DNA from: a virus
Taxonomy: Duplodnaviria > Heunggongvirae > Uroviricota > Caudoviricetes
Length of the DNA stretch: 37,529 bases
IMG/VR virus record: IMGVR_UViG_2778261576_000005
Span: 1 to 37,529 of that record
Reading direction: 5' to 3' (one strand)
In this document: positions 2,600 through 37,529 of the stretch, piece after piece
Layout of the letters: every line of letters begins with the position of its first letter
Numbering within the stretch: position 1 is the stretch's first letter
Notes under the pieces: model-generated
Database searches by the model: none
Seen by the model: only the letters and a program-made list of their open reading frames with translations
What the model was told of the DNA's origin: nothing
Position numbers and translations under genes: made by a program

Positions 2600-2602
2600 G
2601 GA

Positions 2603-3187
2603 TTACTCCGGATATTTAAAAATTACGTAGGTATGCGAAGGGCAGAGTTTGTTAAGCACACACTCGACAACGGTGTCGCCCCAGATACGCAGTGCGGAAT
2701 CACAGGGATCGCCACATGTCATCCAGGTGGTGTTGGTGGCAGCTGGCATGTTGACCTGCCAGTAATACCGCCATTCCGGCGCATTCACCGCGTCAGTACA
2801 GGCCGATGAGCAGGTGAAGGTGCTTTTGTCGTATCGCGTGATGGTGGCATCTGGTCTGCCCAGGGCAGCAAGCTGTGCAAGATAAAAATCCTCGTTGATG
2901 CCGCCCGCCAGGTTAACCTTCGCATCCAGCCGTTGCTGACGCTGGCGAAGGGTCTGCGTTCCCGCCGGAATACATTCATCCGGCAGACCGCACAGACGCT
3001 CCCAGCGGTTTATCAGTTCGGTGGTGGTGCGCGGATCCAGCTCCCGCATCAGGGCATCCGCACGCTGATGAACACGGGTTAATGATGGTGCTGCACCGGC
3101 AATCGCCGGATCGCTGGCTGACCACGCCGGACCGGGCGGCAACAGTGCTGACAACAGACGGATGTAATCATCGTTTGTCACGTCCAT
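2603..3187 (-). CDS. Tail protein, Mu gp48 / P2 gpI-like (YmfQ-like, DUF2313)
   Basis: 194 aa; position between baseplate J and fiber; resembles e14 YmfQ as recalled. Confidence 0.7.
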
Positions 3188-4236
3188 GAAATCGTCCCCA
3201 GAACCGCCAGTTCGTTTTTCGCAATGGAGATATTGTCTGCCGGTGCAAGCAACTGATGGCTGTATTCCCCGTTCGCACCGGAAATCGCTTCACTGATACG
3301 CGACACCTTCAGCTCTCCCTGCGGATAACCATCACGCAGCAGGAACGAACGCAACTCCGCGGTAATGGCAGCCCGTATTTCTGGTGTGTCCGGCGTCACG
3401 CGGATATGAAAATCCACCGTATGTGCCACCGGCCTGAATACATACAAATCAGAGCCTGCCACCGGGGCCAGTGGCCCGATATGTTGTCTTGCTGCCGTTT
3501 CCGTTGATTCTTCCGGAATGGGATTAATCAGGTCACTGCTGGCAATCATCACACCGACAGTTCCCGTTCCCATCCAGTGTCGGTATGTCCATGCGCGGGT
3601 AATGCCGGGCACTTCTTTAGCCCAGACGACATAGTCCCCGTCAGCCCCGCCCTGAGGCGTCCAGTAATACCGCTCAATGACGCGGGCGCGCCACATTTCC
3701 AGCTCTTCAGTATCAAATCCACCTGTCAGTGTATCTGCCACGCCGGAAGACGGCAGACCATTCACCGGCGTGACCAGGATTAATGACGTACCGTCGTCAG
3801 CGTTACCGACCGCGCCTGCACTTGAGCAGGCGATCGGCACGCGCAGGACACCACCGGAGCTGGTTGCATCGGCAGTTGCCGTGTACTGCACCAGGTCATC
3901 GCGCTGAATAACACTCCCGGCGGTCACCTTCAGGCCATCGCTGACACCTTCCCAGCGCATATACCCGCTGGCAGCCGTGGCCCCCTTGCGCGGACACCGT
4001 TTCATCGCAGCATGTCGCGCCAGCCAGGACTCATCGCACAAGTCAGGCAGCATGTTCATTGCCAGATAATCGATGTACCCGTAAACCGTATGCAGCGCCG
4101 CCGCATACACCTTTGCCCGCACGTCTTCATCCATGCGCCGGAGCGTGTCGCTGACGTCCAGCCTGGCGAATAAATCGTTACGGAGCATACTGATATTTTC
4201 TGCCAGCGTCGGGCGCTGAAATTCACTGTCCGCCAT
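3178..4236 (-). CDS. Baseplate J-like protein (Mu gp47-like)
   Basis: 352 aa; size and position in Mu-type baseplate block. Confidence 0.75.
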
Positions 4237-7690: not shown

Positions 7691-8203
7691 CTATCTGAGT
7701 TGAACATCAATGGAATAAATATTACCACTCTTTATAAATTTAGAATCTGTCCTTTCATCAAAAGATTCAAATGACTGTACCTTTAAAAACTTTTTCATTT
7801 TATTTTCAAAAATACTTTCATTAACACCAGTTAAATACTTGAATGCTCTACCAGCAAGGACCTCATTACTTAAATCCATTGTGTTTTTATTGTCTTTGAA
7901 AAACCAAACAATAACCTTTTGTGGGCATGATGGATTATAAACAGATATATAAAACTGCGGCTCATATTTTTCATCAGCGTCATCACTAAGCATTTCTTCA
8001 GAAGATAATTCTCTTCTGAATTCATATTGCCGCTTAGTTATTCCTTCATCCTTTATTATCTCTTGCTTAACTGGTGCAATACCTATAGAAGAGATTAATT
8101 CTGACTCATTAAAGCTGAACTTACACTCTTCCGCAGCCAAGTTAAAAGATAAAAGTGCAGATATAAAAAAAACAAAGATACGCATAATCATCCCTTCAAT
8201 CAT
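7691..8203 (-). CDS. Moron-encoded secreted protein of unknown function (likely start at 8185)
   Basis: AT-rich insert between DNA circulation and tape measure genes; signal-peptide-like MRIFVFFISALLSFNLA then AEE; two Cys in the mature part; AAGGG SD-like element 6 nt before the third ATG. Confidence 0.6.
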   Translation of the reverse strand: MIEGMIMRIFVFFISALLSFNLAAEECKFSFNESELISSIGIAPVKQEIIKDEGITKRQYEFRRELSSEEMLSDDADEKYEPQFYISVYNPSCPQKVIVWFFKDNKNTMDLSNEVLAGRAFKYLTGVNESIFENKMKKFLKVQSFESFDERTDSKFIKSGNIYSIDVQLR

Positions 8204-8284
8204 TTGTAAGGAATGATTATATTAACTACTTAAAGCTGAAAACCCAAATTATGCCAGACAAAAACACATTAATCATTTTGTACA

Positions 8285-10117
8285 CTACCTGAACCGCGTA
8301 TAGCCAACATCATGGCTGACATCAAAACCGCTGGATCGCGTTTCCATAACCCGCATACCCGGAGGCGAATTCACAAAAGAGACCTTGATCTCACCATCAA
8401 CTTTTGGCGCAGAAGCTTTGTTAATCATGAAGGGATTCTGGCCTGTGGCATCGGAGGCGTTGTTTGACTGAGCCGGATCCACCGCCGGATAAGGTGTGTA
8501 TCCCCGTGCCGGTATTCCCGTCCCATAAGCATCATAAGCACCCGCGCCCCACTGCGCAGAGTTAATGGCATCGACCGTGTCACCGGAACTGTCGGTAAAC
8601 CACTCAATAATTGGCTTCAGCTTGTCCCACATATCCTGAAACCACTTAACAACCGGTCCCCAGTTATTGATTACCATCCCCAGCGGCGACCAGGCAAAAA
8701 CCTTCTTCAGAAGTTCCCAGCCAGCCTCAAAATAAGGACCAATGGTTTCCCAGAGCTTCTTGAAATAAGGTCCGACAACATCCCAGTTAGTGATAATTAA
8801 TCCCGCAGCCAGGGCTATCGCCGTCGCAATCATGCCAATCGGCGTCATCGACATGATCCTGCTGACAATACTGATGGCACCGCCAACGCCCATCAATCCC
8901 AGTTTCAGAATCGCAAGACCGGCAGCAAGCCCGACGACGCCGCGAATAACCCGGGGATTTTCATCCGCAAACTTCGTGAATTTCTCCCCCAACTCCCCCA
9001 GCCATTGTGTGATATTTTTAGCGTCACCAGAAAATGCGCCGCCAATAGCCGCAAGGCCGTTAGTTGCGGTCCCTGTCATTGCCTCCCACAGGTTGGACAG
9101 CGTACCAAGCTGTGCCTGAACACGTTTATTCAGGCTGGCCTGTTTATTCATCTTCTGCTGGATCTGATCGTAGCCATCCTTTCCTTTATCGATTAGTGCA
9201 TTGACCACCTGAAGAGTTTCGGCATCATCACCAAATATTGCCTTAAGTACACCTGTTCGCTTAACGTCGGTCAGTTTTCGCAGCTTTGCCAGTTGCCTGA
9301 ACATGTTATCAAGACCGCCAAAACTCCCTTTGCCGTCAGTAAAATCGAGCTGTACCCCGAGTTTCTGGCGGGCCATGATTTTATTAACGTCCCTGATTTT
9401 CTTAACGCTTAATCCGGACTGGATAACTTTTCGCAGGGCATTACCTGCCGACTCCCCGTTCATCCCCATCTGATCCATCATGACGCTGATGGGGGCAAGG
9501 CTCTGTGCAGCCTGAAGACCATCCTTGTTCACCATCTTCAGAACAGAACTGGTTTTAGTGAAGAAGGACAACATGTTGGTATCGTCAACGCCCAGATAAA
9601 ACGCCTTCTGGATAGTGTCGAACAGCCCCATCATGTCTTCTGACGCCGTTCCGGTAGCATCCTGCATCTTTGCAGCAAACTCAGCAGCCGCTTCCGGTGT
9701 TTTTTTCAGTTGTACCGCAAGATAAGCTGTCGCTTTACCCACACCACCCAGAATGTTTTCTGCCGGGATCCCCTGACGCACCAGCATCTGCATCATGTTC
9801 TGGAAATCAGCCGTTGTACCGGGTAGCTGGTTACCCAGGCCAATAGCCAGTTTATTGATGTCCTGAAAGCGCTTTCCAACCTCGCCGTTCGCATCCATCA
9901 TGGCGACTTTCAGCCCGGTGGCGGCGTTTTCCTGATCGGCATAAGATTTCAGGGAAAGCGTCAGACCCGCAGCCAGTCCGCCACCAAGCGCCAGCCCACC
10001 CTGTGACGCTTCTTCCGCCTGGCGTTTAAATCCCCGGATTTTCTTTTGCATTTTCGACAGCGCGGGAGAAAGCCTGTCGACACCGGTGATCAACGCCTTA
10101 AGCTCAAATTCAGCCAT
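8285..10117 (-). CDS. Tail tape measure protein
   Basis: 610 aa; Gly/Ala-rich with hydrophobic segments; follows the frameshifted chaperone pair. Confidence 0.85.
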   Translation of the reverse strand: MAEFELKALITGVDRLSPALSKMQKKIRGFKRQAEEASQGGLALGGGLAAGLTLSLKSYADQENAATGLKVAMMDANGEVGKRFQDINKLAIGLGNQLPGTTADFQNMMQMLVRQGIPAENILGGVGKATAYLAVQLKKTPEAAAEFAAKMQDATGTASEDMMGLFDTIQKAFYLGVDDTNMLSFFTKTSSVLKMVNKDGLQAAQSLAPISVMMDQMGMNGESAGNALRKVIQSGLSVKKIRDVNKIMARQKLGVQLDFTDGKGSFGGLDNMFRQLAKLRKLTDVKRTGVLKAIFGDDAETLQVVNALIDKGKDGYDQIQQKMNKQASLNKRVQAQLGTLSNLWEAMTGTATNGLAAIGGAFSGDAKNITQWLGELGEKFTKFADENPRVIRGVVGLAAGLAILKLGLMGVGGAISIVSRIMSMTPIGMIATAIALAAGLIITNWDVVGPYFKKLWETIGPYFEAGWELLKKVFAWSPLGMVINNWGPVVKWFQDMWDKLKPIIEWFTDSSGDTVDAINSAQWGAGAYDAYGTGIPARGYTPYPAVDPAQSNNASDATGQNPFMINKASAPKVDGEIKVSFVNSPPGMRVMETRSSGFDVSHDVGYTRFR

Positions 10118-10292
10118 GTGTGCGTTTCTCCTGCTCTATCCTGTTTGCCTGACTGACCAGCAAGGGAATTTCACTGATCGGCATACTCAGCAATTCGAAG
10201 GGATTAATGCGCCAGTAGCTGGCGCAGTCAAAGAAGCGATCAGTGAGGTATTCAGCCGTCAGGCCTGGAGGAAAAAACCAGCCACAAGCCAC
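10110..10292 (-). CDS. Tail assembly chaperone -1 frameshift extension (G/GT-like pair)
   Basis: -1 frame ORF overlapping the 3' end of the upstream chaperone ORF and ending at the tape measure start. Confidence 0.55.
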   Translation of the reverse strand: MACGWFFPPGLTAEYLTDRFFDCASYWRINPFELLSMPISEIPLLVSQANRIEQEKRTHG

Positions 10293-10528
10293 GCCGCTGC
10301 ATTCAGGTCTGCCGGAGACATCTGGTCGACAGAGCTTTGCGGCACTTTCGCCAGCCGCACAATGTATTTCGACACCACATGAGCCAGAAGTCTGACGGAC
10401 TCATCCTGATTCATCTGGTAGGGATACCCCAGCTCGCGGACATCCTTCCCGGTGGGCTCATCAAACTCCAGTACGGAGAGTGTCTCGCCATGAGCAGTAA
10501 TCGGTTTCTTTAACTCAAGCTCTTTCAT
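10259..10528 (-). CDS. Tail assembly chaperone (Mu gp41-like)
   Basis: 89 aa; lies between tube and tape measure; contains the slippery site. Confidence 0.65.
   Translation of the reverse strand: MKELELKKPITAHGETLSVLEFDEPTGKDVRELGYPYQMNQDESVRLLAHVVSKYIVRLAKVPQSSVDQMSPADLNAAAWLVAGFFLQA
10271..10277 (-). other. Slippery heptamer T_TTT_TTC for programmed -1 ribosomal frameshift
   Basis: Minus-strand ggT TTT TTC in the zero frame, 6 codons before the chaperone stop; -1 frame continues as FFPPGLTAEY... Confidence 0.55.
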
Positions 10529-23354: not shown

Positions 23355-24107
23355 TTATCTTGTCACTTTTCTCAATTGTGTCTCTGCATATGCTTCTTCC
23401 TGCCAGCACTTTGTAACCAGTTTATCAATGACATCTGCATATCCTTTGTACCACTGATAATCCGTCAGATCCGGTACCAGCTTCTGGACATGATGCCGCG
23501 CCAGTGTGGTTGGTAAACGGCTAAACCGGTTTCCATTGCAACGCCCACAAATCTTATAAACAGGCGCACCATGAAGCCGGGTTCTTTTTTCATCCAGTAC
23601 AATACCTTTCCCCTTGCACCCTCTGCACGCTGTGCTGACTTCTCCCTTACCATGACAATGCTGACATAGTTCCTTCACCCACTCTTCCTTGATAACAGAT
23701 TCCCCGCTTCTGGAGTGTTTCACCACTTCGCGCAATACATTATGAAATCCAGTACCAGCACAATGCTCACAGCGAGCCTTACTTGCCGCAGACCTGGAAT
23801 AATCAGCAAAGGCAAAATTCACAAGGTAAGGGATGATCTGTAACCGGGTTTCTTCACTCAATTTGTTCAATGTCGGGTTATCCAGTGCCATCGCGTAATT
23901 GAGCAGACCTTCAATCGCAAACTGAGGATCCTGAACACCAACTTTTGCCAGGAATAAGGCAAACCCAAGCGGTGCTTTCGACTGCACCATCCCCTGCGCA
24001 GCCATTACATCCGTAATTGTTAAACCACCAGAGCCTGTCGCCGGTGCGTCATCGCTCAATTTTGGAGATTTTGGGGAGTAATATTTTGGTAAGGCTTCAA
24101 GGTTCAT
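23355..24107 (-). CDS. Late antiterminator Q-like protein (QuuQ-type, 250 aa)
   Basis: Directly upstream of PR'/tR'/lysis genes; four CxxCxGxG-type motifs; DUF968 gene adjacent as in Qin prophage. Confidence 0.65.
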   Translation of the reverse strand: MNLEALPKYYSPKSPKLSDDAPATGSGGLTITDVMAAQGMVQSKAPLGFALFLAKVGVQDPQFAIEGLLNYAMALDNPTLNKLSEETRLQIIPYLVNFAFADYSRSAASKARCEHCAGTGFHNVLREVVKHSRSGESVIKEEWVKELCQHCHGKGEVSTACRGCKGKGIVLDEKRTRLHGAPVYKICGRCNGNRFSRLPTTLARHHVQKLVPDLTDYQWYKGYADVIDKLVTKCWQEEAYAETQLRKVTR

Positions 24108-24120
24108 GCTCGTTCTCCAC

Positions 24121-25116
24121 TTACGCCAGTACGCCTATTGCCAGCGCACAATCGATAAAACGAAATATCAGCTCCAGCTGGGAGCCATACTTCTCTTCAA
24201 ATGCCACGGTATCCGCATGCAGCTCGTCGTGATGCTTTCTGCACAAAGGCAACACAAAGAGGTCATGCGCTTTTGTACCCATTCCCCCCTGACCGTGGCC
24301 TATCAGGTGGTGGGGATCATCAGCAGGCTTTCCACAACATGCACACGGCTGTGTCTTAACCCAGCGTGTGTACTTTTCATTAACCCAGCGGCGACGTTTT
24401 GGGCGTAACATAAAAGACTCCGGCGACTCCGGATCCACTTTCAGCGCCAGCACCTTTTTCGCTTTATCCTGGATGATGCTGGTGGCAGGAACCGAAGGCA
24501 CAAGGTCACTTTCCCGGGTGACAGACGGCACAACAGGCTTCGGTAATCTCAGTGCCTTACGGGCTGCACTTTCCGGTAAGGCATCCGCCAGGTCATTACG
24601 AATCAGCCACCAGCACAGTTCCGGCATTGTCACAACGTGACTGTCATCAAAACCGAGATCCCGACGCACAACAGACAACACCCAGCGGGCACAGTTATCC
24701 GTTGCCATTGATTCCAGCCGTTCCGTGAACTGATCGCGCAGCTGGTTATCGCAGTGCCAGCACAGACGGATTGCGCCCGGAGCGTGTCGCATTGTTGTCA
24801 TGTTCTCGCTGTGCCAGTCGGAATGAGGCCACTGGCAGCCTTTTTCACGAAGTAACCAGCTTTCAAGACATTCCACGCCACCAGCACGACGGATCACTGC
24901 CTCATTGCGGAACACGGCCCGAACGGCAGGATCATCCGCCAGCGGTTGTGATGCCGCCGGAACGGCACCACTGGCGAAAGATGAATAACGCTCCGGCTCA
25001 GGCTCCAGCAGGACACGCCCCTGCATAAACAGGGGCATCAGCTCTGAACCTGGCCTGAACAATACGATCCCCATACGCGGGGCAATTTCAGGGGTCAGTA
25101 GTGCTCTCACGGTCAC
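24121..25116 (-). CDS. DUF968-like protein with C-terminal HNH-like Cys/His cluster
   Basis: 331 aa; CACCGKPADDPHHL...CRKHHDELH. Confidence 0.6.
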   Translation of the reverse strand: MTVRALLTPEIAPRMGIVLFRPGSELMPLFMQGRVLLEPEPERYSSFASGAVPAASQPLADDPAVRAVFRNEAVIRRAGGVECLESWLLREKGCQWPHSDWHSENMTTMRHAPGAIRLCWHCDNQLRDQFTERLESMATDNCARWVLSVVRRDLGFDDSHVVTMPELCWWLIRNDLADALPESAARKALRLPKPVVPSVTRESDLVPSVPATSIIQDKAKKVLALKVDPESPESFMLRPKRRRWVNEKYTRWVKTQPCACCGKPADDPHHLIGHGQGGMGTKAHDLFVLPLCRKHHDELHADTVAFEEKYGSQLELIFRFIDCALAIGVLA

Positions 25117-25946: not shown

Positions 25947-26336
25947 TCAGGCGGCTGCACCCGCCGTTTTCTCGTACTTACTGATAGTGATCTCGACCTT
26001 CCCTTCCGGGATAACCGGTCCCCACTCCACCAGCATTCTTTTCACCTGACTGTCGTTCTCCCACACACCCGCGTGGGTCAGGGCGTCAAACAGCGCCTTG
26101 TTATAGTTGTCCAGATCGCGGATCCGGTTATCCGGAGGAAACAACACGATCTCCACTGAAGCAGGTGCCGACGTTGGTTTTGGCAGACGACGTAACTGCT
26201 CAACTATTGCTGCACACGCCGCGCTCTGGAATTTTCGCCCCGCCGCGCTTATCAGGCTCTTACCTGCAAACGCCCCTTTGTTGGGGTGTCGCCAGTACGT
26301 GTTCACGCTGGGCGGAAAAGGCAGTATTAGCTTCAT
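25947..26336 (-). CDS. rusA: RusA Holliday junction resolvase
   Basis: 129 aa; PPSVNTYWRH, RDLDN and FDALT motifs. Confidence 0.85.
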   Translation of the reverse strand: MKLILPFPPSVNTYWRHPNKGAFAGKSLISAAGRKFQSAACAAIVEQLRRLPKPTSAPASVEIVLFPPDNRIRDLDNYNKALFDALTHAGVWENDSQVKRMLVEWGPVIPEGKVEITISKYEKTAGAAA

Positions 26337-26659
26337 ACTTTCAGGCCCCTCTCATGTAACCAGTGGGTTGCACGCAGCCTTGCGTTTTCCTCACCGGCAA
26401 GCAGTGCGCGGATAATCCCGACCGCCTCGCTGTCGTCGTCCTTCACCGCGGTATGAAGCGTTATCCCCCGGGCCACGCCACGCTTTATCGTGATGACGCC
26501 TTTTTTCTCCAGTGCGCGAAGATGCTCCACTGCTGCATTCACTGAACGATATCCCAGCATGGTTGCCACCTCCTGATTGGTTGGCGGGAAGCCACGTTCT
26601 TTCTGGTAAGAAATCAGCATATCCAGCACCTGCTGCTGGCATTGAGTTAACGTCGTCAT
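26333..26659 (-). CDS. LexA N-terminal DNA-binding domain protein lacking the S24 peptidase domain
   Basis: 108 aa; QQQVLDML...GFPPTNQEVATMLGYRSVNAAVEHLRALEKKGVI closely parallels the LexA winged HTH; no Ser-Lys dyad region. Confidence 0.65.
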   Translation of the reverse strand: MTTLTQCQQQVLDMLISYQKERGFPPTNQEVATMLGYRSVNAAVEHLRALEKKGVITIKRGVARGITLHTAVKDDDSEAVGIIRALLAGEENARLRATHWLHERGLKV

Positions 26660-27309
26660 GCCGCCATCTCCCTGACCAGTTTTTCTGCCTGCTGGCGAAC
26701 CTGCGCCAGAAAGGCCTCACCACATGCCTCAAGTTCATCGCGCCCGATGTAGCTGATTGCCGGTCCCTTCCAGGTCTTGTCGAAAACAGCAATAGCACCA
26801 GCGAAGAAAGCGCCTGTCGGCACCTGCTTCTCATCCTTCGGGATAAACCAGGCAGGCAGTTCAAAACCAATACGCCCGCGAATAAAAGCAATATGATCTG
26901 CATCTTCCGGCCACCACACTTCGCTGGTGGCAGCTTTGATCAGGAAAACATAGCGCCCGCCTTTATCACGCATGGCACTGGCATGCTTCATGATGTAACG
27001 CATGCCGGTGATGTATTGCCCCTCATGCTGACTGGCGCGGCTGTATGGGGGATTACCAAAGGCAGCACCTTTAAGCTCCGCAAGGCGTTCTGACCAGTCA
27101 TGCGCCAGCGCGTTGTCTTCCGCCGTGTAATACGCAGCACATTTGGCGTTATCACCGTCAGTGAACAGATCCAGAACAAACGGGCCAAACAGGGTGTTAA
27201 TTCCCCAGAAAATGTTGTCCGGCGTGCGCCACTGATCGCCCACTTCCTTCAGTTCATGGGCTGGTTTGTTCCGCAGTTCCGCCAGCGCCTGGCAATATTT
27301 ATTACTCAT
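26656..27309 (-). CDS. Phage N6-adenine DNA methyltransferase (Dam-like)
   Basis: NPPY catalytic motif; TAATG stop-start overlap with upstream gene. Confidence 0.8.
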   Translation of the reverse strand: MSNKYCQALAELRNKPAHELKEVGDQWRTPDNIFWGINTLFGPFVLDLFTDGDNAKCAAYYTAEDNALAHDWSERLAELKGAAFGNPPYSRASQHEGQYITGMRYIMKHASAMRDKGGRYVFLIKAATSEVWWPEDADHIAFIRGRIGFELPAWFIPKDEKQVPTGAFFAGAIAVFDKTWKGPAISYIGRDELEACGEAFLAQVRQQAEKLVREMAA

Positions 27310-27803
27310 TAAGCCCCCACGTAATTCCCTGAGAGATACCACTCTTCACCTGATGCAGCCCGCTTACTGCTTTTCCGTAAACACCGTTCACGACGCGCCA
27401 GAAAATTGTTTCGTTCTGGCTGGGAGTGGCTTTCACGGAATGCCGCCATCCACACCGTTGCAGCACGACGGTATAAGCCCCTCGACTCCAGTTCTTCAGC
27501 CTGGCGGGTCAGGCACAAAATCACCCGGGGGTCGTTAGTGCCGACATAGAACTTGCGCACAGGTCTGGTTTCACGAACTGGTTGTGGTTCCGGCTCCTGC
27601 GCTCTCTCAGTCAGGCGCGAGAAATGTCTGCGTGTATCTCCTTCACAACGGTGAGCCACACGCCCACTCTGACGTAACTTGCTTGCTGACTGCAGAACGC
27701 GCTGCCGTGAGTAACCTGCAAAAGCATCCGCAATGTCTCCGGAAGTACACCCCGGATGGGCTTCAATGAATTTCTGAACTTCATTCAAAAGACTCATGAT
27801 CAC
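27309..27803 (-). CDS. PerC/ANR-like regulator domain protein
   Basis: 164 aa; C-terminal GLYRRAATVWMAAF...RRERC resembles PerC family. Confidence 0.45.
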   Translation of the reverse strand: MIMSLLNEVQKFIEAHPGCTSGDIADAFAGYSRQRVLQSASKLRQSGRVAHRCEGDTRRHFSRLTERAQEPEPQPVRETRPVRKFYVGTNDPRVILCLTRQAEELESRGLYRRAATVWMAAFRESHSQPERNNFLARRERCLRKSSKRAASGEEWYLSGNYVGA

Positions 27804-30595: not shown

Positions 30596-30793
30596 TTATG
30601 CCGCAGCACTGTTAGTCTTTTGATATAAAGACACGTCAACTTTCAGTTTCCCGTTAGTAATTTTTTCTAACTGGTACGCTCGGCCTTCAGGAATAATCTC
30701 AGGCCACTCTGAAACAGACGGATGCTTAATACCTAGGGCTTCGGCGGTTTTACAAACTCCGCCGAAATAATTAATCACGTCGGATTTCCGCAT
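30596..30793 (-). CDS. Cro-like repressor (YdaS/Cro family HTH)
   Basis: 65 aa; divergent from the CI gene across the operator region; GGAGA SD. Confidence 0.7.
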   Translation of the reverse strand: MRKSDVINYFGGVCKTAEALGIKHPSVSEWPEIIPEGRAYQLEKITNGKLKVDVSLYQKTNSAAA

Positions 30794-30825
30794 TTCTGTC
30801 TCCCGTTAAATTACGTTAAGCAGAA

Positions 30826-30890
30826 ATGTAGGATATCCAACATACCAATGTCAAGAATCCTACATGGGCATGTGGTAGGATTGCCTACAT
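30826..30890. promoter_or_regulatory. OR region: three operator repeats with divergent PR (minus) and PRM (plus)
   Basis: ATGTAGGATATCCAACAT at 30826-30843 plus two related sites at about 30848-30865 and 30870-30890; minus-strand TTGACA-17-CTACAT upstream of cro. Confidence 0.6.
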
Positions 30891-31542
30891 GATGAACATG
30901 AGTGATCGTATTCGCCAAAGGCGAAAAGAACTGAACCTGACACAACAAGCACTGGCTGATTTGACTGGTGTGAACCGTGTCACGGTTACTGGATGGGAAA
31001 AGGACGACTACCAACCAAATGGAGCCAACCTTCAAGCCCTAGCCAACGCACTTAAATGCGATCCTCTGTGGCTTGTTAGCGGAAAAGGCTCGCCTGAACC
31101 AAAGATAAATCTAAAACCTGAAATATTCGCAGTTAAAAAAGTCCCCCTCATCTCGTGGGTTCAGGCGGGTTCATGGACAATGACGGAGCCTGGTGTCAGG
31201 AAAGAAGATGCTGAAGAGTGGGTTTATACTACCGCCCTTGTATCAGAAATGGCATTTGCACTACGGGTCCGTGGTGATTCAATGACCAATCCCCTCGGCT
31301 CACCATCGATACCAGAAGGTTCTATCGTTATCGTAGAGCCAGATATTATTGATACAGAGTGTATTAACGGAAAAATCGTTGTTGCCCATATCAATGGTGG
31401 GCAAGAAGCGACACTCAAAAAATTTGTTGAGGACTGGCCGAACAGGTATCTCGTCCCACTAAATCCTAACTATAAAACTATTGAATGCGGTGAGAACTGC
31501 AGAATAGTTGGTCTTGTCAAACAAGTAATAATGGATTTTTGA
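30889..31542 (+). CDS. CI-type prophage repressor (HTH plus S24 LexA-like autopeptidase)
   Basis: N-terminal XRE-type HTH; C-terminal GDSM Ser nucleophile and conserved Lys. Confidence 0.85.
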   Translation: MMNMSDRIRQRRKELNLTQQALADLTGVNRVTVTGWEKDDYQPNGANLQALANALKCDPLWLVSGKGSPEPKINLKPEIFAVKKVPLISWVQAGSWTMTEPGVRKEDAEEWVYTTALVSEMAFALRVRGDSMTNPLGSPSIPEGSIVIVEPDIIDTECINGKIVVAHINGGQEATLKKFVEDWPNRYLVPLNPNYKTIECGENCRIVGLVKQVIMDF

Positions 31543-31604: not shown

Positions 31605-31658
31605 ATGTAGGATAACCAACATAAACTCTTGACACTCACATGTTGGATATCCTACATT
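31605..31658 (+). promoter_or_regulatory. OL/PL: two operator repeats bracketing TTGACA-N18-TACATT
   Basis: ATGTAGGATAACCAACAT at 31605-31622 and its near reverse complement at 31640-31657; -35 at 31629-31634. Confidence 0.6.
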
Positions 31659-31663
31659 TGTTT

Positions 31664-31752
31664 TTAGAGTTGTGGTGAATGCGCAGGCTGATGCGCGAAA
31701 GACATTGCAGCTATTGCGGAAAAGAGCTGTTCGGCGGGGCCATTAAACGCCC
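31664..31752 (+). repeat. 89-bp direct repeat, copy 1
   Basis: Identical to 32292-32380 except two mismatches; contains a GCGCA-N6-TGCGC hairpin and a GCTCTTTT-complement motif. Confidence 0.85.
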
Positions 31753-31856
31753 ATATCTGGAGGTTAAAGAACAAAATGAAAGTCCAGATTTTAAACAATA
31801 ACTGTGAAGTCGTTTGGGCGTAAAACATGACCGCGCGTAGACCAAGGGAGGAAAAA

Positions 31857-32033
31857 GTGGGAATAGTTAGAAATCAAGCAGATATATTGAAAATCAGCTC
31901 TGAATTGCTTGGAGTTTTGAAAAGTGAGCTCACCGCACATGGCATCGAGCCCACTGACGAAAATTTAAGTTGGGTTTTGTCGATTATTCAACAATCACTC
32001 AAGCCCAGCCTCAGCAAACTTTTTATCGAGTAG
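31857..32033 (+). CDS. Small hypothetical protein (58 aa from GTG 31857; alternative ATG 31827 gives an Arg-rich N-terminus)
   Basis: GGGAGG SD 5 nt before GTG; within the AT-rich cassette; 3' end overlaps the convergent ORF. Confidence 0.4.
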   Translation: MGIVRNQADILKISSELLGVLKSELTAHGIEPTDENLSWVLSIIQQSLKPSLSKLFIE

Positions 32034-32186
32034 TGCTTCGAACTTATCGTAAAGCTTGCTTATGTCGTCTATCGGGTTTTCTGACGTACTGTAATTTTTA
32101 TCTGATGTCATGGCAGCAGTCTGATATGCAGTGTGAGTCTTAACCGATAGTTGGAATAAATAAAGAATTTTTTCTTCTTTGGTCAT
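31995..32186 (-). CDS. Small hypothetical protein (63 aa)
   Basis: AAGGAAA SD 5 nt before ATG at 32186; MTKEEKILYLFQL...; within the AT-rich cassette. Confidence 0.45.
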   Translation of the reverse strand: MTKEEKILYLFQLSVKTHTAYQTAAMTSDKNYSTSENPIDDISKLYDKFEALLDKKFAEAGLE

Positions 32187-32291
32187 AACTATTTCCTTCT
32201 TGGCTATATGAAAACACCAAGATACCACCGAGCCTGAAGTGGTGAAAAGACAGGCACATAACAGCTAAGTATTTTCAACCAGAGAGAATCC

Positions 32292-32380
32292 TTAGCGTTG
32301 TGGTGAATGCGCAGGCTGATGCGCGAAAGACATTGCAGCTATTGCGGAAAAGAGCTGTTCGGCGGGGCAATTAAACGCCC
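32292..32380 (+). repeat. 89-bp direct repeat, copy 2
   Basis: See copy 1; the copies flank a roughly 540-bp AT-rich segment. Confidence 0.85.
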
Positions 32381-32627
32381 GTGAGAGTCTGAAATAACCG
32401 CAAGCCGGAGATCAGCACCGGTCACCACAACAGCCACTGCTTTGGCGGTACCAGTTTGTACACTTGCTTCCGGCTGGTACCGCTCTTTTTACAAAACAGA
32501 GAAGAGCATCACCGGACGACGGGCTCATAACCCAATCCATCCGGGCGTCTGCCACCGCAGGTGTTCTTCTCTGTTTTGTGGAGAAACCAACCGACCTTGC
32601 AGGGTCGATATGATGAGGAGCAGCAAA

Positions 32628-32990
32628 ATGGCTAGCGAACGCAGTACTGATGTGCAGGCATTTATCGGGGAGCTGGACGGCGGCGTATTTGAAACCAAAA
32701 TCGGCGCAGTTCTCAGTGAAGTCGCTTCCGGTGTGATGAACACGAAAACCAAAGGTAAGGTCTCGCTCAACCTGGAAATCGAACCGTTTGATGAGAACCG
32801 TGTGAAAATAAAACACAAACTCTCATATGTTCGCCCGACTAACCGCGGGAAAATTTCCGAAGAAGACACCACCGAAACGCCGATGTATGTCAATCGCGGT
32901 GGTCGCCTGACTATTCTGCAGGAAGACCAGGGACAATTACTGACTCTTGCCGGTGAGCCTGACGGAAAACTCCGCGCAGCAGGTCATTAA
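32628..32990 (+). CDS. YfdP-like early protein (120 aa)
   Basis: AGGAG SD 7 nt before ATG 32628; size and position match the KplE1 yfdP-yfdQ-yfdR order as recalled. Confidence 0.5.
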   Translation: MASERSTDVQAFIGELDGGVFETKIGAVLSEVASGVMNTKTKGKVSLNLEIEPFDENRVKIKHKLSYVRPTNRGKISEEDTTETPMYVNRGGRLTILQEDQGQLLTLAGEPDGKLRAAGH

Positions 32991-33055
32991 TATCGTTCTT
33001 AATTAACTGATTATTTATCTCATCATTGAATATCTTTATATAGTGAGGACTTATT

Positions 33056-33880
33056 ATGTCTCAGAACTTAGACGCAACCGCAATTAATCAAATTCATGCC
33101 CTTATTTCTGCTCAGGGTGTTAATGAAATTATCAGTAAGATTGGTGCCGATGCTGTGGCATTGCCTGAGAATTTCCGCATTCATGATCTGGAAAAATTTA
33201 ATTTAAATCGCTTCCGTTTCCGTGGTGCACTTTCCACTGCCAGCATCGATGATTTTACCCGTTATTCTAAAGATCTTGCAGATGAAGGCACCCGCTGCTT
33301 TATCGACGCCGATAATATGCGTGCCGTCAGTGTACTTAACCTGGGTACTATCGATGAACCAGGTCACGCAGATAACACCGCCACTCTCAAACTGAAAAAG
33401 ACAGCACCGTTCTCTGCCCTGTTGTCTGTTAACGGCGAGCGTAACTCCCAGAAGTCACTGGCAGAATGGATTGAAGACTGGGCCGACTACCTTGTGGGCT
33501 TTGATGCTAATGGTGACGCCATTCAGGCAACCAAAGCGGCTGCGGCGATCCGTAAAATCACAATTGAAGCGAACCAGACAGCTGATTTTGAAGATAATGA
33601 CTTCAGCGGCAAACGCTCCCTGATGGAGTCAGTCGAAGCGAAGACCAAAGACATTATGCCAGTGGCATTTGAATTTAAATGCGTTCCGTTTGAAGGCCTG
33701 AAAGAACGTCCGTTTAAATTACGCCTCAGCATTATCACTGGCGATCGTCCTGTACTGGTTCTGCGCATTATTCAGCTGGAAGCGGTGCAGGAAGAAATGG
33801 CTAACGAATTTCGTGATCTGCTTGTTGAGAAATTCAAAGACAGCAAAGTCGAAACCTTTATTGGTACTTTCACCGCCTGA
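33056..33880 (+). CDS. YfdQ-like protein (DUF2303-type, 274 aa)
   Basis: Size and position; acidic protein. Confidence 0.55.
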
Positions 33881-34007
33881 TTTCATTACTGCAAATGCCC
33901 CTGCGGGGGCATTTATGGAAACGTAATTAACTCAATAATCACCGGATGGTGAGAGCTTCCTTTTACCAGAATTCAGCGCGGTGCAGCGCATATACGTGGA
34001 GAACAAA

Positions 34008-34544
34008 ATGTCATTTATTAAAACTTTTTCCGGGAAGCATTTTTATTATGACAAGATAAATAAAGACGACATCGTGATTAACGATATCGCAGTTTCCCTC
34101 TCAAATATCTGTCGCTTTGCAGGGCATCTTTCACACTTCTACAGCGTCGCCCAACATGCGGTGCTTTGCAGCCAGCTGGTACCGCAGGAGTTTGCTTTCG
34201 AAGCGTTAATGCATGATGCAACAGAAGCATATTGCCAGGACATCCCCGCGCCACTGAAACGACCTCTTCCTGACTATAAACGGATGGAAGAAAAAATAGA
34301 CGCCGTAATCCGTAAGAAATACGGGTTACCCCCGGTTATGAGTACGCCCGTGAAATATGCCGATCTAATCATGCTGGCAACCGAACGCCGTGATCTCGGG
34401 CTTGATGATGGCTCTTTCTGGCCTGTACTGGAAGGCATCCCGGCAACAGAGATGTTCAACGTGATTCCACTGGCACCGGGCCATGCCTACGGGATGTTTA
34501 TGGAACGCTTCAACGAGTTATCGGAATTACGCAAATGTGCATAA
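34008..34544 (+). CDS. HD-domain phosphohydrolase, YfdR-like 5'-deoxynucleotidase
   Basis: GGAG SD 6 nt before ATG 34008 (178 aa); H...HD...D metal-binding motif (LMHDATEAY). Confidence 0.7.
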   Translation: MSFIKTFSGKHFYYDKINKDDIVINDIAVSLSNICRFAGHLSHFYSVAQHAVLCSQLVPQEFAFEALMHDATEAYCQDIPAPLKRPLPDYKRMEEKIDAVIRKKYGLPPVMSTPVKYADLIMLATERRDLGLDDGSFWPVLEGIPATEMFNVIPLAPGHAYGMFMERFNELSELRKCA

Positions 34545-35413
34545 CTCATGTAGTTAGTTTTTCTGGCGGGAGAACATCTGCATATCTTGTTCACCTGATG
34601 GAAGAACAAAGAAAGGCTGGCAATAACGTCTGCTACATCTTTATGGATACCGGTTGCGAACATCCGCTGACATACCGCTTTATTCGGGAGGTTGTGAAGT
34701 TCTGGGGCATACCGCTAACTGTGTTGCAGGTCGATATAAATCCAGAGCTTGGGCAGCCAAATGGTTATACGGAATGGGAACCAAAGGATATTCAGACACG
34801 AATGCCGGTGCTTAAACCGTTTATGGACATGGTAAAAAAATATGGCACGCCATACATCGGCGGCGAGTTCTGCACTGACAGATTAAAACTCACCCCCTTC
34901 ACAAAATACTGCGATGACCATTTCGGACGAGGGAATTACATCACATGGCTGGGTATTCGTGCAGACGAACCTCGTAGGCTGAAACCGAAATCAGGCGTCC
35001 GGTATCTTGCCGAGCTATCTGATTTTGATAAGTCGGATGTTATCCGGTGGTGGCATAAACAACCTTTTGATTTGCAAATCCCGGAGCACCTCGGGAACTG
35101 TGTTTTCTGCATCAAAAAGTCCACGCAAAAGCTGGGGCTTGCATGTAAAGACGAACCTGGTCTGATGCGAGTTTTTAATGAGCTGGTTACAGGTAAACAC
35201 GTCCGGGATGGTCACCGAAAGACAAATAAAGACGTTATGTACCGTGGTCATCTGAGCCTTGACGGGATTGCCAGAATGTATGCCGACAGCGACTACAGAA
35301 ATTTGTATCAGGCGATGGTGCAAGCCAGGCGATTCGATACCGGCTCGTGTTCAGAGTCATGTGAAATCTGGGGTGATCAATTGGAATTGAAATTCGAAGA
35401 GGTGGTGGCATGA
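34535..35413 (+). CDS. PAPS reductase-like PP-loop ATP pyrophosphatase family protein
   Basis: SFSGGRTSA PP-loop motif near the N-terminus; 292 aa. Confidence 0.75.
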   Translation: MCITHVVSFSGGRTSAYLVHLMEEQRKAGNNVCYIFMDTGCEHPLTYRFIREVVKFWGIPLTVLQVDINPELGQPNGYTEWEPKDIQTRMPVLKPFMDMVKKYGTPYIGGEFCTDRLKLTPFTKYCDDHFGRGNYITWLGIRADEPRRLKPKSGVRYLAELSDFDKSDVIRWWHKQPFDLQIPEHLGNCVFCIKKSTQKLGLACKDEPGLMRVFNELVTGKHVRDGHRKTNKDVMYRGHLSLDGIARMYADSDYRNLYQAMVQARRFDTGSCSESCEIWGDQLELKFEEVVA

Positions 35414-35613
35414 CAATCGTAAAAACCCATACCGGCATTGTGATCACCAAAGACGGCCCGCAGGTAAAAAAACTTCACCAGACAGAGCGGATGTGGGTCG
35501 TCGGCAAAAACGAGTTTTACCACAAAGAAACCGGACGCCGCCACTTTGCAGAAAATACGCGCCGCCGACTACTGATCGACACCATCAAGCCTATCGAGGT
35601 GAAGCATGTTTAA
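35410..35613 (+). CDS. Small hypothetical protein (67 aa)
   Basis: ATGA overlap with upstream stop; GAGGTGG SD. Confidence 0.45.
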   Translation: MTIVKTHTGIVITKDGPQVKKLHQTERMWVVGKNEFYHKETGRRHFAENTRRRLLIDTIKPIEVKHV

Positions 35614-35845
35614 ACAGAACGAAAAATCTATCGCTCAAATTGCTGAGTATATCCCGCGTGCGTGCCGGGGTATGCAGTTGCAGGAAGCCAAAGCGCGCCT
35701 GGAGAAAAAAATTGCGCTCTATATCGATGACGGCTGTGATGCTGCCGTTCTTAACGCGGCGTTCGCGCCAGCTCTTAACAGTCATACGCGGGAGTCTTTT
35801 TTTTCGCGCATCGCAGCGCAGATCCGTAAAGGAGGCAACCAGTGA
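35606..35845 (+). CDS. Small hypothetical protein (79 aa)
   Basis: Coupled to neighbours by overlapping stop/start. Confidence 0.45.
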   Translation: MFKQNEKSIAQIAEYIPRACRGMQLQEAKARLEKKIALYIDDGCDAAVLNAAFAPALNSHTRESFFSRIAAQIRKGGNQ

Positions 35846-36153
35846 GCAATTATCTGTACTGGTCTGGCTTAGTGGCTAACATTGCGCTCATGTTGTTCGT
35901 GGCTCTTTGCATCTGGGTTTGGTTTATCTGGCCTTTTGTAGAGGCTATGAGCATAACTCGGTGCTTTATTTGCGCATCAAAGACTTCTGGATGCAAACCA
36001 ACTGTAAGAGCAATTATCAGAACTTTAAAATACTGGTATCTGGATTTGCTTTTCGGCAGGGGCTGGACGCGAATTAGTAACCGCCAGTTTGAATGGGAAG
36101 GCGTCGGTAACTGGCGAATTCACAGCAGCAAAGAAACGCAGGAGGTGAAGTAA
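35842..36153 (+). CDS. Small membrane protein (103 aa, one N-terminal TM)
   Basis: GTG start with AAGGAGG SD; hydrophobic segment LVANIALMLFVALCIWVWFIW. Confidence 0.5.
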   Translation: MSNYLYWSGLVANIALMLFVALCIWVWFIWPFVEAMSITRCFICASKTSGCKPTVRAIIRTLKYWYLDLLFGRGWTRISNRQFEWEGVGNWRIHSSKETQEVK

Positions 36154-36725
36154 TGAACAACTTAATGATCGACCTTGAGACGATGGGGAAAAATAAGGAT
36201 GCACCAATCGTTTCCATTGGCGCGGTGTTCTTCACCCCAGAAACCGGAGACATCGGACAAGAATTCTATACGGTTGTCAGCCTGGAAAGTGCTATGGAGC
36301 AAGGGGCCACACCTGACGGCGATACCATCCTGTGGTGGTTGAAACAGAGCCCTGAAGCACGAGCTGCAATCTGTATTGATGATACTTTGTCGATCAGCGA
36401 TGCACTCTCTGAACTGAGCCATTTCATTAATCAGCATGCAGACAATACAAAATATTTAAAAGTCTGGGGTAACGGGGCCACCTTCGACAACGTAATTTTA
36501 CATGGAGCTTATGAGCGAGCAGGACAAATCTGCCCGTGGGCATACTGGAATGACCACGATGTACGCACGATCGTTACGCTTGGGCGTTCCATCGGATTCG
36601 ACCCCAAAATGGACATGCCCTTCGATGGCGAACGGCACAACGCCCTGGCCGATGCCCGTCATCAGGCAAAATATGTTTCCGCTATCTGGCAGAAATTAAT
36701 TCCTGCCACCAGCACAGAATTATGA
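36153..36725 (+). CDS. 3'-5' exonuclease, DEDD family
   Basis: MIDLETMG acidic motif I, later conserved His/Asp (ERHNALADARHQ); 190 aa. Confidence 0.7.
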   Translation: MNNLMIDLETMGKNKDAPIVSIGAVFFTPETGDIGQEFYTVVSLESAMEQGATPDGDTILWWLKQSPEARAAICIDDTLSISDALSELSHFINQHADNTKYLKVWGNGATFDNVILHGAYERAGQICPWAYWNDHDVRTIVTLGRSIGFDPKMDMPFDGERHNALADARHQAKYVSAIWQKLIPATSTEL

Positions 36726-36761
36726 TTTTCCCGGGTGCAGCCGGTTTTGATGGAGAAAATT

Positions 36762-37034
36762 ATGAACACCTTGTTTTTACTGATGGCTGAATTCAATACC
36801 CCTAACATTGAACTCTCAGCAGTTAGCCAAAAGTACTTTGGCATGAGTCCAGCCACGGCAGAAGCAAAAGCAAACGCTTGTAAGTTGCCCGTTCCAACAT
36901 ATCGCATCGGCACATCACAAAAAGCAAAACGTTGCATCAATATTCAGGATCTTGCGGAATACATAGACAAAAGGCGAGAAGAAGGGCGTGCTGAGTGGGA
37001 AAGGGTCAGAACCCATAAACAAAGGCTCATTTAA
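36762..37034 (+). CDS. Excisionase-like DNA-binding protein (PrtN family)
   Basis: GGAG SD 6 nt before ATG 36762; about 90 aa; last gene of early-left operon before the expected int. Confidence 0.5.
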   Translation: MNTLFLLMAEFNTPNIELSAVSQKYFGMSPATAEAKANACKLPVPTYRIGTSQKAKRCINIQDLAEYIDKRREEGRAEWERVRTHKQRLI

Positions 37035-37041
37035 ATAGAAT

Positions 37042-37075
37042 ATGAATAAACCCATCCAAAGATGGGTTTATTCAT
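37042..37075. terminator. Perfect 15-bp stem hairpin between convergent xis-like gene and the 153-aa ORF
   Basis: atgaataaacccatc-caaa-gatgggtttattcat; no clean T-run on either side. Confidence 0.5.
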
Positions 37076-37529
37076 AATGTTGAAGAGCAGCGAGTATCAG
37101 TTTTTTATGCCGTTTAACCATAGTTTTAGATATCTCAACTGCACATCGAACTTGTCTCATACAATGATCTGTAATGCGACCTTTTAGCACGTCACCATAT
37201 TGGATGGCTATTTTCTCTTTAATAATTTCAAGATCGAAAGCAGCATGAGCCTCAATGCAATTAACAAATGAGTCCCATTTAAGAAAATCATGGTCCTCTC
37301 TATTAATTTCGACCTGACAAGCCATAAGATCATTGTTTCTCTTAATAAATTCATTTATATCTGAATTTATTAGAAGAACTAAAAGAGGTTCACAGCAAAC
37401 AACCACCATATATTTTACTTTAGGTGGGGTCGTAAAATCACAATGAAGATACAATACATCACCGGGTGATATACCTCTTTCACGACTAAAATTAGCCTTA
37501 AAATCAGGAGGGAAACAATCACCCAGCAT
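37068..37529 (-). CDS. Hypothetical protein encoded on AT-rich DNA (153 aa), unknown function
   Basis: ORF runs to the window edge, which ends exactly on its ATG; convergent to the early-left operon. Confidence 0.5.
   Translation of the reverse strand: MLGDCFPPDFKANFSRERGISPGDVLYLHCDFTTPPKVKYMVVVCCEPLLVLLINSDINEFIKRNNDLMACQVEINREDHDFLKWDSFVNCIEAHAAFDLEIIKEKIAIQYGDVLKGRITDHCMRQVRCAVEISKTMVKRHKKLILAALQHYE

Follow-up and report, generated by a model that had tools for sequence, protein, structure and literature searches.

The closest described relatives of the locus considered here are the yfdP-yfdQ-yfdR-yfdS-yfdT-torI region of prophage CPS-53 (KplE1) in Escherichia coli K-12 and orf29-32 of phage SfV. 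A second point of reference is the exo-xis region of phage lambda, in which orf60a, orf63, orf61, orf73, ea22 and ea8.5 are small, swappable accessory genes with early expression. The locus itself occupies positions 32628-36725 of the virus record IMGVR_UViG_2778261576_000005 from IMG/VR, the whole 37,529-nucleotide stretch of which was analysed and is referred to below as the window. It is part of a leftward (PL) operon that starts with yfdP, yfdQ and yfdR and continues with a gene for a PAPS-reductase-like protein of the lambda NinC type, three small open reading frames (ORFs) and a gene for a DEDDh exonuclease. We consider it likely that these genes make up the delayed-early accessory region, leftward from PL, of a temperate E. 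coli myovirus of the SfV/CPS-53 type, and that they are a mosaic of independently exchangeable cassettes rather than one pathway. The reading draws on gene identities, intact motifs, gene layout, mosaicism and homologies; all cellular roles are inferred.

The block shares its starting gene order with CPS-53 and SfV, and its YfdP, YfdQ and YfdR proteins are 98-99.6% identical to those of K-12. As in these relatives, an excisionase gene stands at the prophage end and the remainder of the window holds SfV-type virion genes. The window belongs to the SfV/SfII/SfI-type temperate myoviruses of E. coli; over its first 25 kb, the identity to those phages and to SKA5, vB_EcoM-689R6 and vB_EcoM-720R4, all three of Escherichia, is 97-98%. 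The differences lie in the middle and at the end of the operon. In place of yfdS, yfdT and ypdJ, the window has the NinC-type gene, the three small ORFs and the DEDDh exonuclease gene. Its excisionase is of the PrtN type, whereas that of K-12 is TorI, and BLASTP finds no similarity between the two.

The layout is that of a lambda-like early-left operon (Table 1). Virion, lysis and replication genes occupy the minus strand of the window. A Cro-like gene faces a cI/LexA-like gene, and a PL-like promoter site, with operator copies on both flanks, adjoins the end of the latter. A mirror-image PR-like site has the same hexamers and one copy of the same 19-nucleotide (nt) operator. All eight plus-strand genes of the block lie downstream of the PL-like promoter and are followed by the excisionase gene, and a simple promoter scan of the plus strand from 31700 to 37200 gave no further promoter-like site. 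From yfdR onward successive genes overlap, by 10, 4, 8, 4 and 1 nt. The initial annotation, made from the sequence without database searches, had recognized a PL operon with YfdP/YfdQ-like proteins, an HD-domain nucleotidase-like enzyme, a PAPS-reductase-family protein, three small coupled ORFs (one of them membrane-associated) and a DEDD exonuclease. These identifications are borne out: each gene is present on the plus strand at the position it gave, with a family match; the promoter and operators beside the cI-like gene agree with the name PL; and one of the small ORFs has an N-terminal hydrophobic helix. The word 'coupled' is correct, because successive gene ends overlap from yfdR onward. 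The operon runs further than the annotation had placed its end, through the excisionase gene to a hairpin.

Table 1. Positions of the genes and sites discussed in the text, in window coordinates.
Feature	Position	Strand	Details
Q-like antiterminator gene	23355-24107		adjoins the nin-like region
HNH endonuclease gene, 331 amino acids (aa)	24121-25116	-	phrog_96
RusA-like resolvase gene	25947-26336	-	
Stand-alone Dam-type DNA adenine methyltransferase gene	26656-27342	-	rightward operon; PF05869, E 1.2e-45
Cro-like gene	30596-30793	-	
PR-like mirror-image site	30825-30854	-	
cI/LexA-like gene	30889-31542	+	
OL/PL-like control region	31605-31658	+	promoter-like TTGACA-18-TACATT at 31629-31658; 19-nt palindromic operator twice, at 31605-31623 and 31640-31658
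Direct repeat D1, copy 1 (89 nt)	31664-31752	+	about 6 nt past the PL -10 hexamer, where the early-left transcript has its 5' end
Direct repeat D1, copy 2	32292-32380	+	98% identical to copy 1; in the conserved yfdP leader
Terminator-like inverted repeat	32491-32579	+	25-nt arms, 84% complementary, T-rich tail; terminator-like site of the scan at 32543-32566
yfdP, 120 aa	32628-32990	+	99.2% identical to K-12 YfdP; phrog_204, E 1e-49
yfdQ, 274 aa, DUF2303	33056-33880	+	PF10065, E 6e-93, 311 bits against a cut-off of 26.6; 99.6% identical to K-12 YfdQ
yfdR, 178 aa, HD-domain phosphohydrolase	34008-34544	+	RefSeq-type start at 34008; phrog_318, E 7e-110
NinC-type gene, PAPS-reductase-like PP-loop-fold protein, 292 aa, cysteine-rich	34535-35413	+	PF01507, E 3e-9
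Small ORF, 67 aa	35410-35613	+	phrog_1226, E 1e-42; also in mEp460, vB_EcoM-720R4 and a Stx2a phage
Small ORF, 79 aa	35606-35845	+	phrog_1344, E 2e-52
Small ORF, 103 aa, GTG start	35842-36153	+	phrog_2531, E 4e-27; RefSeq CDS; one N-terminal hydrophobic helix, read from the sequence
DEDDh 3'-5' exonuclease gene, 190 aa, Rv2179c-like/DexA-like	36153-36725	+	PF16473, E 3e-75
PrtN-type excisionase gene, last of the operon	36762-37034	+	PF11112, E 4e-23, 81.8 bits against a cut-off of 24.2; phrog_1300 'excisionase', E 7e-40
Terminator-like perfect 16-bp hairpin	37041-37076	.	between xis and the convergent 153-aa gene
153-aa ORF	37068-37529	-	convergent with xis

The mosaic character of the block is most apparent from what follows yfdR in related elements. 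In K-12 CPS-53 the series is yfdS, yfdT, ypdJ and then torI, without an exonuclease gene. Phage vB_EcoM-720R4 has an EaE/yfdS-like gene, the 67-aa and 79-aa ORFs, a short ORF and the exonuclease gene, and mEp460 has a yfdS-like gene, the 67-aa and 79-aa ORFs, an Ea22-like gene, a small ORF, a DUF551 gene and the exonuclease gene. A prophage of E. coli CFS3292 is arranged partly as mEp460, with the addition of a MazG-like dATP/dGTP pyrophosphohydrolase gene. The Stx2a phage Lys12581Vzw has kil, gam-like, recT, exo, ssb, YfdP-like and YfdQ genes, then a 147-aa ORF, the PAPS-like gene and the same 67-aa and 79-aa ORFs. These two ORFs always occur together, whatever precedes them and with or without the NinC-type gene. 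The NinC-type gene of the window and yfdS of K-12 overlap the end of yfdR by an identical 10 nt, which fits exchange at gene boundaries. In other words, the comparison indicates a stable frame, yfdP-yfdQ-yfdR followed at a distance by exonuclease-xis, around a swappable middle. Because the slot after yfdR holds differing genes, a functional unit of HD enzyme, PAPS-like enzyme and DEDD exonuclease is disfavoured.

Prevalence gives the same picture. DNA matches were counted among 5426 complete E. coli genomes, 3116 of which match the 4.7-kb region at least partly; at least 80% of the region is found at one place in only 43, at about 99% identity. A meaningful three-enzyme combination, as implied by the title of the initial annotation, agrees poorly with these counts: yfdR DNA is found in 2971 genomes and the NinC-type gene in 430, but only the 43 just mentioned have the whole block. 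Plasmids account for 72 of the 462 places of the NinC-type gene; copies about 90% identical lie on plasmids of about 100-130 kb, which may be phage-plasmids. RefSeq annotation already covers every gene of a block that is 98.8% identical, and near-identical blocks occur in isolated phages, for example vB_EcoM-720R4, mEp460 and SKA5. By these matches the block is already catalogued, belongs to the commonest prophage gene blocks of E. coli and represents no new system.

The likeness to the exo-xis region of lambda is one of position and make-up. There too the accessory genes lie between PL-proximal genes and xis, and Ea22-like and EaE-like genes fill the same slot in sister prophages of the window. 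The gene families are different, and a link of the window block to the lysis-lysogeny decision is without experimental basis.

We propose the following course of events. The block would form one transcription unit, from the operator and promoter beside cI to the excisionase gene at the prophage end, which would be repressed in the lysogen and switched on at induction or infection. Within it, yfdP-yfdQ would be a conserved two-gene module, and YfdR an HD phosphohydrolase used by the phage to halt host replication initiation. The NinC-type enzyme, in a Dam context, would serve in the evasion of phosphorothioate-based restriction. The DexA-like DEDDh exonuclease would trim DNA 3' ends or oligonucleotides, and Xis would come last in the order.

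The NinC-type protein is 78.4% identical to lambda NinC over residues 2-292 (tblastn, against the lambda record annotated NinC) and 93% identical to copies in Stx2a phages. Relatives were found by tblastn in 590 phage records, 341 of which are Vibrio phages. The window protein and lambda NinC fall into the same length class, and the lambda gene is likewise a non-essential accessory gene. Their positions differ: the window gene lies in the leftward PL operon between yfdR and xis, whereas that of lambda is a nin-region gene within the rightward (PR) operon, between P and Q. In Stx2a phages the gene is in the leftward operon, as in the window.

Although named for its resemblance to PAPS reductase, the protein departs from that enzyme in several respects. 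The PF01507 match is limited to residues 5-73, in the N-terminal part. Common to 18 homologues (51-80% identity) are S10-G-G-R13-x-S15, D38-T-G40 and six cysteines, C113, C126, C189-x-x-C192 and C272-x-x-x-C276. The PP-loop reads S-G-G-R-T-S in the window, and each of the 18 aligned homologues has SGGR(T/S)S where the canonical sequence is SGGxDS. The CysH catalytic motif E-C-G-L-H (ECG[LI]H) was not found in the 292 residues, the C-terminal invariants being C272-x-E-S-C276-E, and the score against the NCBIfam CysH equivalog PRK02090 was 20.3 bits, compared with a cut-off of 154. The protein does share with CysH the adenine-nucleotide alpha-hydrolase fold: an AlphaFold model (pLDDT 83.6) has CysH and APS reductase as its best Foldseek matches (probability 1.00, TM-score about 0.4-0.5); lower in the list are the PP-loop enzymes LarE and NcsA, including entries with a [4Fe-4S] cluster. 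Taken together, the sequence characteristics indicate that the NinC-type protein is not a sulfate-assimilation enzyme.

The profiles of known defence systems point in another direction. Among PADLOC profiles the best match was SspD (E 1.3e-15), and BrxP (1e-4) and DndC (8e-4) were also matched. What the NinC-type protein has in common with these three is the N-terminal nucleotide-binding domain, and it is cysteine-rich, as are iron-sulfur PP-loop enzymes. A second line of evidence comes from the Dam methyltransferase encoded in the rightward operon. In phrog_33262, a family profile of 495 positions, this protein aligns with positions 283-492, while positions 2-279 are matched by the NinC-type protein (E 8e-92). 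Natural NinC-Dam fusions exist (P0203, P0217 and P0234). P0234 is 54% identical to the NinC-type protein, its C-terminal domain is 72% identical to the window Dam, and its gene has an ExoX-like DEDD exonuclease gene and xis-int as neighbours in the early-left region of a prophage. In the window the NinC-type protein ends at residue 292, the Dam domain is not fused to it and the Dam gene is 7 kb away. Since its relatives are fused to a DNA methyltransferase, DNA is suggested as the substrate or context of the NinC-type enzyme.

Genetic evidence is available for a relative in vibriophages. Transfer of p0018 and p0019 into a sensitive sister phage allowed growth on a Dnd-carrying host (Piel et al., bioRxiv 10.1101/2021.05.05.442762), a study that a 2026 paper cites for PAPS reductases in anti-defence loci (PMC13551039). 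The NinC-type protein is 55% identical over 283 aa to the N-terminal PAPS domain of p0018, a PAPS-Dam fusion of Vibrio phage 44E38.1 (44E38.1/36E38.1), and the shared residues include C-x-x-C, C-x-x-x-C and the motif resembling a PP-loop. A YfdP-YfdQ pair and a DEDD exonuclease are likewise encoded by this vibriophage. It differs from the window in that the window has one gene for the PAPS domain and another for Dam, in opposite operons, p0019 has no homologue in the block and the vibriophage exonuclease belongs to another DEDD subfamily (23% identity, E 0.02). JSS1_004 was also considered as a Dnd-evading phage PAPS reductase and was rejected; it is a kinase-shutoff protein, and the right reference is Piel et al.

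Given the Dam fusions, the affinity to SspD, DndC and BrxP and the vibriophage genetics, a role against phosphorothioate-based restriction is favoured. The NinC-type enzyme would act on DNA, in the context of the phage Dam, to evade restriction of the Dnd or Ssp type. A more specific proposal is that it is a stand-alone, DNA-directed PP-loop/iron-sulfur enzyme that, with Dam, marks phage DNA or disarms Dnd/Ssp restriction; we offer this tentatively and regard it as possible but rather doubtful.

For YfdR, a cellular role has been described in K-12, and it is for the K-12 protein alone that dNMP phosphatase activity and binding to DnaA domain I are known (PMC4776307). The window protein is 98.3% identical to K-12 YfdR over all 178 residues, and its HD residues H50, H69-D70 and D119 are present in an alignment with PDB 2gz4 (Atu1052, a solved HD protein; E 1.6e-13). 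The PHROGs label of the family is 'deoxyribonucleoside 5' monophosphate phosphatase'. K-12 YfdR binds domain I of DnaA directly, with a requirement for Phe46 of DnaA, and competes with DiaA and DnaB (Noguchi and Katayama, PMC4776307). In vivo, oriC initiation is inhibited by multicopy yfdQRS or yfdQRT; in vitro, extracts with an oversupply of YfdQRST have the same effect, and low nucleotide affinities are reported for YfdR (PMC4776307). The reported set of partners is incomplete here, as the window lacks yfdS and yfdT. Shut-off of host replication initiation is a property of lambda P, and by analogy YfdR expressed from PL may help to stop host initiation.

Several observations weigh against this overall account. 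The NinC-type protein differs from DndC, SspD and BrxP in that the SspD and DndC matches cover its N-terminal half only (for SspD, residues 5-152 against profile positions 2-125 of 277), and in having no partner genes nearby: DndD/DndE, SspB/SspC and a cysteine desulfurase were not among the operon proteins in searches with Pfam, PHROGs, NCBIfam and PADLOC. The third difference is the PP-loop variant SGGR(T/S)S; because it has T/S at the position of the canonical D, ATP pyrophosphatase chemistry is not assured. The vibriophage transfer used two genes, a PAPS-Dam fusion and p0019, and is thus no proof that the PAPS domain suffices by itself. Lambda can do without ninC, for which no phenotype is known (PMC10695390). 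Deletion of yfdQRST was without an initiation phenotype, and the authors themselves regard the multicopy effect as possibly an artefact (PMC4776307). Finally, the tight translational coupling could still mean that neighbouring genes are functionally linked, especially the 67-aa and 79-aa ORFs.

The yfdP-yfdQ pair is conserved in phages of five genera. In all five distant phages examined (Salmonella 118970_sal3, Stx2a Lys12581Vzw, Pseudomonas LPPA56, Vibrio 36E38.1 and Xanthomonas CP2), a YfdP homologue lies directly upstream of a YfdQ homologue, with 33-62% identity for YfdP. Recombination or replication genes share the early region with the pair in three of the five, namely an epsilon-like DEDD exonuclease and SSB in Vibrio 36E38.1, gam-like, RecT, exonuclease and SSB genes in Stx2a Lys12581Vzw, and Erf and an exonuclease in Xanthomonas CP2. 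YfdQ matches PDB entry 9o7m, 'YfdQ Protein' (E 8e-45), in which a single 274-residue sequence makes up 36 chains; the listing of these begins with chain C, which means that A and B have another identity. YfdP found no match in PDB, either as a single sequence or as a six-sequence profile, and the predicted model of YfdQ (pLDDT 74) found no PDB fold neighbour in a search library that does not contain 9o7m. In the literature we found no paper for 9o7m and no published function for the pair. Deletants of yfdQ show weak sensitivity to methyl methanesulfonate (MMS) and hydrogen peroxide (H2O2) (cited in PMC4776307).

Judged by its neighbours in other phages, the pair would act on DNA beside recombination or replication proteins. 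From this synteny and the MMS/H2O2 sensitivity of the yfdQ mutant, our guess is that the two proteins form an oligomeric module for DNA handling, so far undescribed, that goes along with the recombination genes of phages. In another reading, YfdP, YfdQ and the exonuclease could be a recombination or DNA-end-processing module that takes the place of Red, RecET or Erf. Arguing for this, genes for Red-beta, RecT and Erf are absent from the PL operon of the window, and RusA, O-like replication, Dam and HNH functions are the only ones encoded by nine ORFs that were examined in the rightward region next to it. The shared early regions in the Vibrio, Stx2a and Xanthomonas phages, the mutant sensitivities and the 36-chain structure entry point the same way. 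We nevertheless regard such a replacement module as unlikely.

In Vibrio phage 36E38.1 (L006), at 1787-3226 and 7979-10419, genes for the epsilon-like DEDD exonuclease, YfdP, YfdQ and SSB are consecutive, and a PAPS-Dam fusion is present. The kinds of early genes found in this E. coli myovirus thus recur in an unrelated podovirus. In a sister vibriophage, mutations that escape retron-Ec48 are located in the epsilon-like DEDD exonuclease (bioRxiv 10.1101/2021.05.05.442762).

The exonuclease of the window is a complete member of its family. The PF16473 match scores 252 bits against a cut-off of 27 and covers profile positions 1-177 of 177, and D7, E9, D112, H162 and D167 are kept in at least 98% of 111 homologues. 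Its nearest solved relative is T4 DexA (PDB 8kel, E 5.6e-10). DexA scavenges host DNA and assists intron homing, and its homologues are commonest in Escherichia (Kang et al., PMC12153337). One of these, EcD ('HREX') of E. coli, cuts only DNA with 5-hydroxymethylcytosine (5hmC) and protects against T4 even at leaky expression (PMC12153337). With DexA and EcD the window protein shares the DEDDh 3'-5' exonuclease class, and its size is near that of EcD, which is described as lacking several loops and helices of DexA (PMC12153337). In DexA, D90 is tied to tetramer formation and to the cutting of unmodified DNA, and EcD has alanine there (PMC12153337). The window exonuclease differs from EcD at this point: at the positions of S87 and D90 of DexA it retains serine and aspartate, as S80 and D83 (read off the alignment), and it is encoded in a repressed early operon.

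The activity of EcD suggests another explanation, in which the block is partly an anti-phage defence of the lysogen and the DexA-like exonuclease, like EcD, degrades 5hmC-modified DNA of T-even phages. The demonstrated effect of EcD on T4 (PMC12153337) and the intact catalytic residues of the window protein, itself a DexA homologue, are consistent with this. Counter to it, the exonuclease gene is the eighth under cI-type operators and the promoter scan gave no internal promoter-like site. In addition, the residues S80 and D83 are kept, and none of the 120 closest homologues begins with MIDTET, the start of EcD according to a cloning primer, which is the only form in which we know its sequence. 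A search with the 20-mer of that primer gave one chance match, in a viral contig without an exonuclease ORF. We think a defensive role in the lysogen quite unlikely.

The three enzymes might instead make up one nucleotide-pool or DNA-modification pathway, in which, for example, the exonuclease would release deoxyribonucleoside monophosphates (dNMPs) for dephosphorylation by YfdR, and nucleotides would be modified by the PAPS-like enzyme. In favour, one operon holds the genes in translational coupling, none of the catalytic motifs is broken and the PHROGs name for the YfdR family is that of a phosphatase. Phage T5 offers a precedent for the breakdown of DNA combined with dNMP dephosphorylation in Dmp, a deoxyribonucleoside 5' monophosphate phosphatase. 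The distribution of the genes speaks otherwise: the full block is present in 43 of the 2971 genomes with yfdR, the NinC-type gene is found in 430 genomes and partly on plasmids (the 72 of 462 places given above), its slot holds unrelated genes in sister prophages, and the nin region of lambda has NinC but neither YfdR nor this exonuclease. The low nucleotide affinities reported for YfdR (PMC4776307) also argue against a single pathway, which appears very unlikely to us. That the block is decaying prophage cargo without current function is scarcely credible: the K-12 copy does lie in a cryptic prophage and the null results with yfdQRST (PMC4776307) and lambda ninC (PMC10695390) would fit, but all ORFs are intact and coupled, catalytic residues are conserved, homologues are retained across genera at 40-80% identity and near-identical blocks occur in isolated phages.

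We thus return to the view of the block as an early accessory region assembled from exchangeable cassettes, and can state more closely what it keeps of earlier suggestions. The initial annotation had hinted at nucleotide-pool manipulation, DNA modification or anti-defence roles. The general idea of accessory, host-takeover or counter-defence functions is upheld, and DNA modification or anti-defence is best supported for the PAPS-like gene; nucleotide-pool manipulation is weakly founded, the PAPS-like protein having no CysH motif. Degenerate catalytic motifs, which it had named as a possible refutation, were not seen, those of YfdR, the PAPS-like protein and the exonuclease being intact on alignment. 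Its remark that none of the functions is defined goes too far: YfdP, YfdQ and YfdR are all but identical to the CPS-53 proteins of K-12, YfdR is a published binder of DnaA, and homologues of NinC and DexA are present.

The PHROGs families matched by the three small ORFs are all of unknown function, and a Pfam search at E values up to 5 gave nothing credible for them. The record of phage vB_EcoM-720R4 ends at the excisionase gene. No integrase gene lies beside xis in the window, and the left-end ORFs examined encode tail proteins. The window ends exactly at the start codon of the 153-aa ORF. E. coli CFS3292 has an identical 153-aa ORF between xis and the zur/yjbJ/dinF locus, where its neighbour encodes a protein with a Panacea domain. 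Panacea domains mark antitoxins, and by this association the 153-aa ORF may be a toxin-antitoxin cargo gene at the right end of the prophage; it has no PADLOC or Pfam match. On the other side of the control region, the HNH endonuclease and RusA-like resolvase genes make up a rightward nin-like region, which the Q-like antiterminator gene adjoins.

The leader between PL and yfdP has a composite structure. The two copies of direct repeat D1 are 628 nt apart, whereas the sister prophage L001 has a single copy and lacks the intervening 628 bp, a segment that carries a 68-aa ORF on the plus strand and a 77-aa ORF on the minus strand. The leader sequence with D1 copy 2 is also found in mEp460, Stx phages and P1. 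A stretch of 143 nt that includes D1 is 98% identical to phage P1 just after the P1 tRNA-Asn and tRNA-Thr genes, and the first approximately 35 nt of D1 (CGTTGTGGTGAATGCGCAGGCTGATGCGCGAAA, with the hairpin GCGCA-GGCTGA-TGCGC) recur in many Klebsiella and Enterobacter phages. A structured RNA was considered for D1 and rejected, as there is no Rfam match, the fold is not better than that of shuffled sequences (z = -0.69), no tRNA is predicted and there is no copy on the PR side. D1 may be a linker for recombination, a nut-like site or the first part of a small C-x-Y-C-G ORF; on a put-like or nut-like role the evidence points neither way. An N-like antiterminator was likewise rejected. The sole ORF between PL and yfdP that was considered for it, of 68 aa, sits in the 628-bp segment and is not obligatory, since the sister prophage lacks that segment. 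A terminator-like repeat stands inside the operon just before yfdP, yet no obligatory N-like antiterminator gene lies upstream of it.

Two leads remain from the analysis, neither of which is specific to the window: the relation of NinC-type enzymes, with their fusion partner Dam, to phosphorothioate systems, and the YfdP-YfdQ pair. The latter is kept across five genera and has a homologue that was solved as a large assembly, which makes it a reasonable target for work on phage DNA metabolism. As for the former, lambda NinC, the 'PAPS reductases' of Stx and SfV-type phages and the domain from the Dnd-escape vibriophage belong to one family, whose fusion partner Dam is encoded separately in the same phage here. 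If our reading of the NinC-type enzyme is true, it would give a counter-defence role to lambda NinC, to which no function has been assigned in all the time that the lambda sequence has been available. Through these connections a long-standing orphan of the best-studied phage becomes testable by simple plating and DNA mass spectrometry.

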